Shown here one piece after another: positions 41,383-43,130 of a stretch of 64,000 nt of DNA; positions within the stretch are counted from its first letter, which is position 1; the number at the start of each line of letters is the position of its first letter. The translations under genes were made by a program, and so were the position numbers. Origin of the DNA: an uncultured Bacilli bacterium (GTDB taxonomy: Bacteria; Bacillota_I; Bacilli_A; RF39; UBA660); contig CAKPEJ010000002.1 of NCBI GenBank assembly GCA_934149325.1, positions 10,194-74,193 on the forward strand, given 5' to 3'. A model generated the notes under the pieces. The model was not told where the DNA came from and did no database searches. It saw only the letters and a list, made by a program, of their open reading frames with translations.

Positions 41383-41449
41383 TGGATTATATCTAATTGC
41401 TTGTATTTATTTCCCGAACCACAAGGCCTTTGGTATTGAGTTTTTTGAT

Positions 41450-41580
41450 AGTTTTTGGAAGCATTTGACACGTTAATTCGGCACTTGGTTGCACCCCAGA
41501 ACACTCAACAAACCTAGCAGAACTTATTTAAAAACTTATCTAAAAAAACTTGATTTTAATTTTTTACAATTTTTGAATAA
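41450..41580. repeat. Direct repeat copy A (~100-130 nt; ...TTTGGAAGCATTTGACACGTTAATT...AACTTATCTAAAA...TAATTTTTTACAATTTTTGA)
   Basis: Shares a 20-nt exact block (TAATTTTTTACAATTTTTGA) and ~80% identity over ~90 nt with copy B at 43021-43130. Contains a 40-nt GC-rich insert not present in B. Confidence 0.55.
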
Positions 41581-41582
41581 CA

Positions 41583-42416
41583 CTATTTGTTAGATATTCT
41601 TTTAAGTTCTTCTTGTTCTAATTCCCTGATAGATTTTTCTGGGGTAGGTAATTTTTCTGGAACAGTACCCCCAATTTTCTTTATTGTGTTCCTAACAGCT
41701 TGACCAACTGCATGATGTGTTTTACATGCATCTTCTTCATTGTTAACTTTTTTATTTTTTAAAACTTCATCCGTTTGAGTTATTCTAAATAAATTAGCTG
41801 CTAATTCTGTACTCCCCATATAATCTAATATATCTTCTTTATCTGGATCAATACCTTTTCTTTTGGCAATTTGTTTTGCAGTTTCCCCATCATATAATCC
41901 TCTATATCCATAATCATTGAACTTTCCATAATTTTGCACTCCTGCATTTTTAGCTGTATCAAATAGATACTTGTTTTTATTTTTTACATTAATTCTAGTA
42001 TATAGTCTTTTTTCATCTTCTGATAATTTAGAATACTCTTCTTGATTAATTTCCATTTTTCTTGTTTGGACAGCAAAATATGTTTGACCTAATGCAACTG
42101 ATTTATGTCTTACTGGACTTGCATTTTGTACTATTAAATAACATGCATATCTAGAAAGTTTATAATCAATAACCTCTTTTGTAGCTCCTTTAGGCATTTT
42201 TATCGTTTTCCCTATAACGGGAAAATGATCATTTACATTAATTCCACTTAGTTTGCAACTTATTTTCGCTTTATTAATTACTTTAGCAAAATGTTCCCAT
42301 TTTGAATATTCCAAAGCCAACATTAATTCTCTTGCTTCCCAATATTCATTTCCAAGGTCATCAATATGTTTTATATCTTCAAAAGTTTTTTCTTTGTACT
42401 CTTCTATATGATTCAA
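41583..42416 (-). CDS. dinD: DNA-damage-inducible protein D (DinD) family protein
   Basis: 277 aa. N-terminal ...NEYWEARELMLALEYSKWEHFAKVINKAKISC... typical of DinD. Confidence 0.8.
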   Translation of the reverse strand: MNHIEEYKEKTFEDIKHIDDLGNEYWEARELMLALEYSKWEHFAKVINKAKISCKLSGINVNDHFPVIGKTIKMPKGATKEVIDYKLSRYACYLIVQNASPVRHKSVALGQTYFAVQTRKMEINQEEYSKLSEDEKRLYTRINVKNKNKYLFDTAKNAGVQNYGKFNDYGYRGLYDGETAKQIAKRKGIDPDKEDILDYMGSTELAANLFRITQTDEVLKNKKVNNEEDACKTHHAVGQAVRNTIKKIGGTVPEKLPTPEKSIRELEQEELKRISNK

Positions 42417-42501
42417 GTTACCAATCCTCCTTTGTTATATATTATAGCAAACATTTGTTCTTAAATCAATATTGTATGGCTTTTTTATTAATTATCTTAT
42501 A

Positions 42502-42971
42502 TTATTTGTTTTTATAATTCATATGAATGTCCTCTTCTGTTAATTCTGGATTGCTTGTTATAAATCCAATTTTCAAATAACAATGTATTGCTCGAGAATT
42601 ATCTGATTTAACATATAATTCAAATTCATGTATAATTAAATTCTTTAGTAACATAATTAATCATTGCTTTTATTGATTCTGTACCATAATGCCTGTTTTG
42701 TTTTTTGGTATAATAGATAACAAGATTTCACCAACATTATCTTTTTTAATAATTATTTCAAAATTACCGATATATTCATTTGTTTCTTTTTCAATCATAG
42801 AATAAATATGGGCATTTTTATCATTGATTTGTTTACTAACCAAACTTACTATCTGATTTTTATTAAAAATTTTTTTTAAACAACAATTTTTAAATATTCT
42901 TTTAGTAAATATTCATTCATTTTTACATAAAATATATTCTCTGATTGAAATATTAACTCTAAATTTTCCAT
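42502..42971 (-). pseudogene. GNAT-family N-acetyltransferase pseudogene (premature stop after codon 31, further frame disruptions)
   Basis: ATG 42971 gives MENLELIFQSENIFYVKMNEYLLKEYLKIVV-TAA. Downstream frames encode acetyltransferase-like GNFEIIIKKDNVGEI...HCYLKIGF...EEDIHMNYKNK. No ORF >=60 aa in the track here. Confidence 0.6.
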
Positions 42972-43020
42972 ATAACCAACTACTACAATAATTATAGCAT
43001 AAACTTATCTAATTTTATAT

Positions 43021-43130
43021 TCACTTTGGCCATGTTTTATACGGCTTTGAAGCACTTCGATAATTTTGAAATACTTATCTAAAACTTATCTAAAATTTTT
43101 AAGTTGTAATTTTTTACAATTTTTGAGAAT
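43021..43130. repeat. Direct repeat copy B (partner of 41450-41580)
   Basis: ...TTTGAAGCACTTCGATAATTTTG...ACTTATCTAAAACTTATCTAAAA...TAATTTTTTACAATTTTTGA. Same orientation as copy A. Together they bracket dinD + GNAT pseudogene. Confidence 0.55.

Follow-up and report, generated by a model that had tools for sequence, protein, structure and literature searches.

A tandem motif beside secA-tail copies as the likely arm-type site of small integrase-less cassettes in uncultured gut Bacilli

The 64-kb stretch of DNA analyzed here (the window) comes from an uncultured Bacilli bacterium and carries, past the 3′ end of secA, a series of small units bounded by copies of the end of that gene. One of them holds dinD and a broken GNAT acetyltransferase gene between two short direct repeats (copies A and B) that contain the motif TTAGATAAGTT in tandem. 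Comparison with ~200 related loci, designated by number (L001 onward), indicates that these units are likely integrase-less cassettes arrayed at the secA 3′ end, and that TTAGATAAGTT likely serves as the arm-type site of tyrosine integrases targeting secA. The motif is read in this way because the same layout is built with other words in other lineages, the words match from one end of a unit to the other, they change with the integrase clade, and TTAGATAAGTT itself adjoins phage integrases.

The window is ~25% GC, nearly all of its genes lie on the − strand, and the array is read in gene-strand order, i.e., with descending coordinates. The gene order is hpf, four unknown genes, secA (48326→45822), ~9.5 kb of variable DNA, and prfB-ftsE-ftsX-pcsB. 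secA ends in ~42 nt (45822-45863) that code for the SEC-C zinc-binding tail (CPCGSGKKYKNCCGK*) and are read as the putative integration target, the core of the attachment (att) site. Five copies or remnants of this segment, encoding ..CGSGxKYKxCCGK*, occur in the same orientation: 45822-45863, 44692-44733, 43973-44014, 43186-43227, and a truncated one at 41396-41426. The secA-tail remnants noticed in the original prediction are therefore real; they form a 42-nt repeat family (D1) at 43186, 43973, and 44692, plus the secA end at 45822. Tails divide the region into units with a 191-aa open reading frame (ORF), a 139-aa ORF, a 143-aa ORF, and the GNAT pseudogene plus dinD, followed by a RhuM fragment on the truncated tail; the GNAT/dinD unit stands in tandem with four further tail-bounded units. 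With the repeats read as candidate cassette ends, the features are as follows.

45822..48326, − strand: secA, from its ORF, Pfam SecA domains on the near-identical L001, and repeat family D1.
45731..45770, − strand: left arm of the first cassette, the tandem ATTATGCACAC / ATTTGTGCACATTTTGTGCTCAT just past the secA stop, a non-TTAGATAAGTT word family.
44692..44890, − strand: right end of the first cassette, a ATGTGTTCAATTTGTGTGCAAAA pair (~44866-44890) and secA-tail copy 1 (44692-44733).
43973..44153, − strand: displaced, diverged secA 3′ end of 180 nt, 72-74% identical to 45823-46005 and ending in tail copy 2 (43973-44014).
43880..43972, − strand: left end of the 143-aa cassette, a terminator hairpin (43935-43972) and a single TTAGATAAGTT (43880-43890) 82 nt past the tail stop.
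43186..43343, − strand: right end (subtype R-b) of the 143-aa cassette, one motif copy left (43331-43341), an AT-rich spacer, and tail copy 3 (43186-43227).
43002..43185, − strand: copy B, left end of the GNAT/dinD cassette.
42502..42972, − strand: GNAT acetyltransferase pseudogene, its frame broken, with stops in the translation and weak NCBIfam GNAT matches.
41583..42416, − strand: dinD (DNA damage-inducible protein D), NF008573 equivalog at 2.5e-99, above the cut-off, with a Bro-N domain.
41396..41576, − strand: copy A, right end (subtype R-a) of the GNAT/dinD cassette.
41158..41382, − strand: RhuM-family C-terminal fragment, PF13310 at 8.9e-09, profile positions 201-248 of 252.

Copy B with tail 3 and copy A with the truncated tail flank only the GNAT pseudogene and dinD. 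Copy B comprises a hairpin (43133-43185; −20.2 kcal/mol, z −5.8), a 20-mer (43107-43126), a TTAGATAAGTT pair with an 11-nt period (43073-43095) that starts 93 nt past the tail stop, and a third motif copy (43002-43012), after which comes TGCTATAAT (42991-42999). Copy A is made up of the 20-mer (41557-41576), a 12-nt-period pair (41521-41546), a 94-nt GC-rich spacer (41427-41520), and the truncated tail CCTTGTGGTTCGGGAAATAAATACAAGCAAT (41396-41426), to which the RhuM fragment is fused at the distal junction of the array. The same architecture as that of copy A is found in L003, L016, L060, L075, L111, and ~20 metagenome loci, and the 93-nt left-end subclass of copy B recurs in L003, L060, and L111. 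Complete tails have a terminator-like hairpin and a U-run directly after them; the terminator scan misses these hairpins (loops of >8 nt), which were folded separately (−15.7 kcal/mol and z −2.95 for 43935-43972). Among the other units, the first cassette carries the 191-aa ORF (44977-45552); its left-arm word family also lies past secA in L027, L028, L045, L049, L055, and L079, and a right end of identical type follows an integrase in L213. The displaced secA 3′ end, supported by repeat families D2 and D3 and by BLAST, comes after the 139-aa ORF cassette (44231-44650). In the 143-aa cassette (ORF at 43386-43817), the R-b spacer holds a mini-ORF (..KLQVCFNILPCGSGRKYKQCCGK*), and a complete two-copy counterpart of this end exists at 5785-5952 of L002. 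No integrase homologue was detected in the 64-kb window by phmmer with three integrases, even at E ≤ 10, nor was a recombinase domain found in the genes flanking secA. The units are therefore regarded as integrase-less and similar to cis-mobilizable elements (CIMEs), which would move only with an integrase supplied in trans; the GNAT/dinD unit is classed as a CIME because both of its ends are present and the integrase is absent.

At the level of the motif, what had originally been observed was confirmed in part. As had been described, the 20-mer TAATTTTTTACAATTTTTGA occurs exactly at 41557-41576 and 43107-43126; it has no third place in the window, and the tandem motif pairs are recovered by Tandem Repeats Finder at 41521-41546 (period 12, copy A) and 43073-43095 (period 11, copy B). 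The 12-mer ACTTATCTAAAA has four exact copies (41534, 43073, 43084, and 43332), all on the + strand, which together with two one-mismatch copies inside the array (41522 and 43881, + strand) span 41522-43892. At ≤1 mismatch, the window holds 10 matches versus 2.7 ± 1.6 expected, a count well beyond chance that 0 of 100 shuffles reach. Read on the gene strand, the 11-mer core TTAGATAAGTT occurs exactly five times in 64 kb (41533, 43002, 43083, 43331, and 43880), always on that strand and within 41533-43890, with none in the rest of the window; the copy at 43002 had been overlooked. The statement that the motif recurs only inside the island thus holds for exact copies (41533-43890) but not for one-mismatch copies, some of which lie elsewhere in the window. 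The direct repeat proved shorter than the ~100-130 nt first given: the similarity runs from the 20-mer to the second motif copy, i.e., over ~56 nt (41521-41576 versus 43073-43126, ~84% identity), with a 1-nt indel inside the motif pair, and beyond the second motif copy the alignment of copies A and B is noise, with no relatedness. As for the GC-rich "insert" of copy A, the stretch exists (41427-41520) but it is no insertion; it is a spacer conserved in many genomes, and because L003 has it as well, with a motif copy on one side and a complete tail on the other, it counts as a regular component of the right end.

Six contigs were retrieved by exact search with the DinD protein. Of these, L001 matches the window at 99.98% identity, and the others differ from the window by whole blocks. 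Downstream of secA, L002 has a 331-aa ORF unit, the 139-aa unit, a tyrosine recombinase reduced to its C-terminal fragment, an intact rhuM (7173-8192), dinD, and copy A, and lacks copy B and GNAT. In L003, a T-box leader (Rfam RF00230, 104 bits) and a complete metG (TIGR00398, 5.6e-146) take the place of the 143-aa unit, and the GNAT gene is intact (164 aa, Acetyltransf_3/_1). The joint between L002 and the window falls inside the 42-nt tail; of the two joints with L003, one is inside a tail and the other right after a motif copy (43880-43890). Variable presence of the dinD/GNAT segment between strains, with repeat-to-repeat junctions, had been proposed as a check, and it is whole blocks that vary, not one simple unit, since the left half is replaced in L002. 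The T-box and extra methionyl-tRNA synthetase gene form a cassette in L003 (380-632 and 684-2315), L111 (raw coordinates 3868-4119), and L128, with ends matching those of the GNAT/dinD cassette of the window; an additional metG that is carried by a mobile cassette might serve as a resistance or backup allele. In L004 (1-190), a tail ending ..AAGCAATG| joins the interior of GNAT at an 8-mer common to the two, and in the window (41383-41426) the copy-A tail, ..AAGCAAT|, is fused to the RhuM C-terminal fragment. Both of these independent truncated tails end at ..AAGCAAT(G), a hint that they could be products of secondary-site recombination marking the crossover point near CAATG of the tail.

The same arrangement extends across species. 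SecA relatives were collected from 80 species-level genomes of uncultured gut Bacilli, labeled Bacilli, Tenericutes, Mollicutes, or Erysipelotrichaceae, with SecA identities of 67-85%; the closest named record is Clostridium sp. CAG:433. In ~26 of the 80 loci, secA is followed by extra SEC-C tails, which without exception share its strand. Exact TTAGATAAGTT is found at +85 to +107 past the secA stop (mostly +86/+97) in 9 species, and the pair appears again 114-148 nt upstream of extra tails. Over the 150 nt past every tail, a terminator hairpin is followed by a tandem direct repeat of a 10-11-nt word at the same place; depending on the lineage, this word is TTAGATAAGTT, TTAGATACGTT, TTAGATACCTT, TTTGTCCAC, TTTGTGCAC, TGTTTGCAA, TTTGTTTCC, TTTGTCATCC, TTGTGTGCAA, or others, and past the window's own secA it is TTTGTGCAC. 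Many contigs stop 0-400 nt past the secA stop (L012, L022, L023, L036, L052, L066, L077, L083, and others), probably through assembly breaks caused by repeated tails and arms together with strain heterogeneity.

A metagenome scan for exact motif pairs, a set chosen by the motif itself, yielded at least 120 loci with a constant geometry. Among the matches listed, pairs with an 11-nt period start 82-83 nt past a tail stop in 34 of the 45 cases with a preceding tail, and 64-93 nt past it in 39 of 45; for pairs with a 12-nt period, the distance from their start to the following tail is 120-148 nt in 41 of 46, and tails on the opposite strand occur at one locus only. In L146, a motif pair lies at both extremities, giving the order left end, cargo, right end. 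Left ends form a major class (pair at 82-83 nt) and a minor one (93 nt); the minor one contains the 20-mer and is the type of copy B. Right ends have three spacer subtypes: GC-rich (R-a, the copy A type), AT-rich with a mini-ORF (R-b, as at 43228-43343 of the window), and 148 nt long (R-c). Complete units with both pairs number at least 39; they are 444-2853 nt long, carry one or two genes, with few exceptions on the strand of secA, and fall into 24 sequence clusters. Their cargo comprises NUDIX, FMN-reductase-like, HD, HAD, metallophosphoesterase, GNAT, S-adenosylmethionine-dependent methyltransferase, and APH-like kinase proteins as well as metG, and is interchangeable: the unit of L111 has a copy-B-type left end and a copy-A-type right end around a T-box and metG instead of GNAT and dinD. 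One and the same cassette is found directly behind secA in one genome, behind another unit elsewhere, or behind different secA alleles. In tail-to-tail units, the left word equals the right word in 31 of 42, versus 14.8 ± 2.1 (maximum, 23) in 1000 shuffles, and the agreement extends to the families TACATAC, GTCCAC, GTGTGCA, GTTTCC, TAGATACG, and TAGATACC. Mutual information between tail positions and end types was assessed over six tails classified on both sides. A separate case is L148, where the opposite strand of a cassette (4416-7269, oriented) encodes both an IS91-like (Y2) transposase and a tyrosine recombinase of 283 aa; here a transposable element lies within the cassette.

Two components of these ends recur beside the arm words. 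The 20-mer (AAAAATTGTAA core) is a conserved submodule ~10-25 nt before the pair, both in R-a right ends, where it is usually present as AAAATTGTAAAAAATTAAAAT, and in left ends of the 93-nt class; left ends of the major class have it inverted (TTACAATTTTT). As a guess, it may be the site of an accessory bending or directionality factor. The GC-rich spacer, present in the window (41427-41520) and in ~20 related right ends, is composed of about eight degenerate 10-nt units resembling RAGTGCTCCC, and its self-similarity peaks at lags 10, 20, and 30 (0.42, 0.40, and 0.33 versus ~0.25). Twelve spacers measure 104 nt, four measure 103 nt, and four measure 94 nt; the window copy is exactly one 10-nt unit short. 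The most economical reading is an array of putative phased protein-binding sites. Other origins were considered for this piece. For a structured RNA or tRNA, there was no Rfam match in the window at gathering thresholds and no ARAGORN tRNA gene, and RNAalifold on 13 right-end spacers gave −7.8 kcal/mol with a positive covariation term and zero compensatory pairs. A coding origin was discarded as well; the 104- and 94-nt length variants differ by 10 nt and therefore preserve no reading frame.

The link between arm words and integrases comes from elements that carry both. In the prophage contigs L089 and L090 from IMG/VR, a tail and terminator are followed by two TTAGATAAGTT copies and a degenerate third one, ~50 nt, and the stop of a convergent gene for a 387-aa tyrosine-type integrase, after which come a cI-like S24 repressor, cro, and phage replication genes. 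The family of this integrase has at least 1361 proteins, and four of its relatives, P0002 to P0005, adjoin secA tails with tandem pairs of their own. For P0002 (73% identical to the L089 integrase), a TTAGATAAGTT pair is ~50 nt away and comes after a complete secA 3′ end (L215); P0004 (60%) has a TATCTACA pair and is convergent with secA, 130 nt apart (L216); P0005 (60%) has a TACATAAGTTT pair and P0003 (61%) a TTACATACAAA pair. The complete 9-kb element of L111 is bounded by a more distant relative and has TTAGAACCATT pairs at both ends. The arm word thus covaries with the integrase, five clades having five words in this small sample and the two proteins that are 73% identical sharing TTAGATAAGTT. 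Integrase-bearing elements occupy the same kind of arrays elsewhere, and integrase pseudogene fragments are common in them; intact tyrosine integrases of ~426-446 aa start 190-235 nt past the secA stop in L017, L021, L033, L051, and L085. PF00589 is detected in the L089 integrase (1.5e-25), L021, L051, and L009, with Phage_integrase and SAM-like domains in the L051 and L021 proteins; Arm-DNA-bind_4 (PF14657) is above the cut-off in L051, subthreshold in L021 and L009, and annotated in many homologues of the L089 integrase.

Two further arrangements were noticed in these integrase-bearing loci. L154 (1520-3340, oriented) has an excisionase-like helix-turn-helix (HTH) gene and a gene for a 437-aa integrase at the right end of its element, with a TGTTTGCGATTTGTTTGCA pair ~100 nt before the tail, a second layout in which the integrase is next to the P arm. 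The word TTTGTCCACA, with inverted TGTGGACAA copies, appears in the first 150 nt past secA in L011, L021-L023, L065, L082, and L085 as the tandem word of another integrase family; it is one position off the DnaA-box consensus TTATCCACA, which may be coincidence.

Taken as attachment sites, these elements suggest the following mechanism. Copies of the SEC-C tail (the terminal ~42 nt of secA) would bound each cassette and act as the core. The terminator hairpin and tandem TTAGATAAGTT pair after a tail (copy B) would form the left, P′-type arm, and the second pair with its 94-148-nt spacer before the next tail (copy A) the right, P-type arm. An incoming element would replace the secA tail so that SecA keeps its zinc-binding end. 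Temperate phages integrating at the secA 3′ end are proposed to encode a lambda-like integrase clade that reads TTAGATAAGTT, its N-terminal domain presumably binding the word; strand exchange would take place in the tail, probably near ..AAACAATG.., with the overlap of the crossover predicted near AAACAATGTTG. The cassettes of the window may have accumulated by site-specific accretion, and cassettes may still be mobilizable in trans. Of the explanations first offered for the repeats, that of att sites of a small cassette gains support, with a shift in the boundaries: the repeats correspond to left-end and right-end arm modules, and the boundaries proper would be the adjacent secA-tail copies. 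The support comes from ends of the GNAT/dinD cassette that carry other cargo elsewhere (T-box and metG in L111 and L128), from the intact GNAT and dinD within a cassette in L003, and from the different neighbors of that cassette in the window and in L003.

Several observations weigh against this mechanism. The right end (P arm) of the TTAGATAAGTT phage was not recovered, since the exact 12-nt-period pair has no match in viral contigs; a looser pair pattern gave 29 chance matches there, zero of them near a tail, and the integrase search of these contigs returned only L089, L090, and one distant relative. TTAGATAAGTT on both arms is consequently seen for cassettes only, not for an integrase-bearing TTAGATAAGTT element. 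In the L089 integrase itself, Pfam detects the catalytic domain and no arm-binding domain. The rule of an 11-nt period on the left and 12 nt on the right is not absolute, the right end of L146 having period 11, and the left breakpoint between L003 and the window is at the motif, not in the tail. Some units, e.g., the first cassette of the window, are mosaics with an unlike word at each end, so that homologous recombination between short repeats also shapes the arrays. Selection of the metagenome set by the motif inflates the share of TTAGATAAGTT in the concordance test, and no circular-contig signature of an excised cassette was found among the 120 metagenome loci.

A rival reading takes the repeats for inert scars left by prophages or islands that integrated serially and decayed, with ends kept by descent and present variation generated only by RecA-dependent recombination between short repeats, with no integrase acting on the cassettes. 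The mosaic units and the breakpoint at the motif fit such a history, as do the frequency of integrase fragments and truncated tails, the lack of circles among the metagenome loci, and a window devoid of integrase. Decay, however, does not readily keep the pair-tail spacing to ±1 nt over dozens of unrelated cargos in several species, and compact cassettes of one or two genes with both ends complete would be a rare outcome of the random decay of 9-40-kb elements. One cassette is moreover found behind different secA alleles and at different array positions, and phages from the same community carry live integrases with this same word. Scars are thus an unlikely explanation.

Still less probable, to the point of being very doubtful, is that TTAGATAAGTT is an operator or upstream promoter element bound by a factor that coregulates the island genes (e.g., the WYL-HTH protein encoded nearby, LexA, or a repressor of XRE or cI type). 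The left pair does lie 25-450 nt (mostly ~70-130 nt) upstream of cargo start codons, the third motif copy abuts TGCTATAAT of the GNAT gene, and the tandem 11-nt spacing would suit a dimeric or oligomeric DNA binder. The right pair, however, lies past the cargo, with nothing but a tail remnant after it, so the promoter modules once suggested would be at most a side aspect. The position of the motif is fixed relative to secA tails, not to promoters or genes, its word covaries with the integrase clade, and a WYL homologue is present in the fetched DNA of 2 of 134 loci with an exact pair, which argues against the earlier idea of a target for an island-encoded WYL or XRE regulator. dinD has a LexA-like box of its own: its promoter (TTGATT-17-TGnTATAAT, 42469-42441) is overlapped by the LexA/Cheo-box-like AGAACAAATGTTTGC (42447-42461), kept in L002-L005, which fits SOS control of this cargo. 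A promoter consensus scan gave fewer matches than in shuffles. As to the possibility that an AT-rich word recurs by chance where the genome has 25% GC, the composition of the motif and its one-mismatch copies elsewhere in the window would be in keeping with it; we give it practically no credence and regard it as already refuted by the shuffles and by the same secA offset of the word in many species, to which the single strand and 2.4-kb span of all exact copies can be added.

Just beyond the array, the window encodes a WYL-HTH regulator (40545-41024) and a 343-aa protein without family (39459-40490), which may be part of either an older unit or the chromosome. Farther away, a single 4732-aa ORF occupies 901-15099 on the − strand.

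The proposed mechanism can be extended, tentatively, to an integron-like system, a possibility that we hold at somewhat less than even. In it, a clade of uncultured gut Bacilli with small genomes would keep, at the end of secA, hundreds of different 0.4-3-kb cassettes with a complete miniature attP, captured, shuffled, and spread by integrases of the temperate phages whose arm specificity they mimic. Each cassette would consist of two arm-word pairs and a core that re-creates the zinc-binding tail of SecA, with no recombinase of its own; several arm-word/integrase specificities would compete for the one site, and the 10-nt-periodic GC-rich spacer would serve as the binding array of an accessory (directionality) factor. 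If mobilization in trans takes place, abundant uncultured gut bacteria with reduced genomes would have a functional counterpart of the integron, of Gram-positive or Mollicute-like type, that relies on phage-type integrases and uses a protein-coding target. Such a system would offer a route for the exchange of accessory enzymes (acetyltransferases, phosphotransferase-like proteins, methyltransferases, and a spare methionyl-tRNA synthetase), explain why contigs of metagenome-assembled genomes frequently break right after secA, and supply natural matched pairs of integrases and arm words for studies of specificity evolution or as orthogonal integration tools. At the least, an unexplained repeat turns into annotated att sites and the "island" proves to be made up of five or more units.

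Integration at the secA 3′ end was not described in the literature searched. The class of mechanism is itself well known, and what sets this case apart is the size and number of the units, small cassettes with complete arms. Lambda-type attachment sites combine a core with arm-type sites (P1/P2 and P′1-3) bound by heterobivalent tyrosine integrases. The secA elements share with them a short core common to the host target, a distinct tandem word on both sides at ~80-150 nt, an integrase gene that abuts the P′ arm, an integrase family many of whose members are annotated with an N-terminal arm-binding domain, and a target at a gene 3′ end that is rebuilt by the element. They differ in that the core is the SEC-C tail of secA and the arms, predicted from sequence, are simple pairs with 11- or 12-nt periods; one right-arm subtype has a GC-rich 10-nt-periodic spacer with no known counterpart.

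With integron arrays, the secA array has in common one chromosomal site, many single-gene cassettes in one orientation that are shuffled between strains, and cargo such as acetyltransferases, phosphotransferase-like proteins, methyltransferases, NUDIX proteins, and small unknowns. It appears integron-like in behavior because single-gene cassettes with complete arms keep their ±1-nt spacing over many unrelated cargos. It nevertheless lacks everything that defines an integron: IntI, attI, and folded attC are all missing, the recombinase is not resident at the site, and the cassettes have their own promoters and a lambda-like attP made of arms and a coding core. Instead of attC-like ends, there are direct-repeat words and a coding tail, with terminator-like hairpins only and a spacer without conserved fold. 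In staphylococci, staphylococcal cassette chromosome (SCC) and pseudo-SCC islands form tandem cassettes at the 3′ end of rlmH (orfX), bounded by direct repeats that contain the end of this housekeeping gene. Recombinase-less cassettes stand there beside recombinase-bearing ones, the recombinases are large serine enzymes (Ccr) that are not known to use arm sites, and the cassettes are much larger. The secA array is therefore comparable in its tandem, target-end-bounded cassettes and different in recombinase type, arm sites, and cassette size. In the streamlined genome of Prochlorococcus, tycheposons are islands that reportedly consist of cargo modules with partial copies of the integration target, a tRNA gene, between them, and that use tyrosine recombinases; the secA array resembles them in the cargo modules between partial target copies, the target here being a protein-coding tail. 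To our knowledge, no arm-word architecture has been reported for tycheposons.

The closest parallel in tandem organization is provided by the CIMEs and tandem accretion of ICESt1-type integrative and conjugative elements at the fda 3′ end of Streptococcus thermophilus (PMC5704250). As in the accretion of integrative and conjugative or integrative and mobilizable elements, integrase-less units keep attL and attR and line up one after another at a conserved gene's 3′ end, having originated by site-specific accretion, and are potentially mobilizable by a related integrase (PMC5704250). The secA units differ in being far smaller (0.4-2.9 kb, one or two genes), very numerous, and diverse, and in their tie to phage integrases instead of conjugative elements; they are suggestive of a standing pool rather than of occasional decay.

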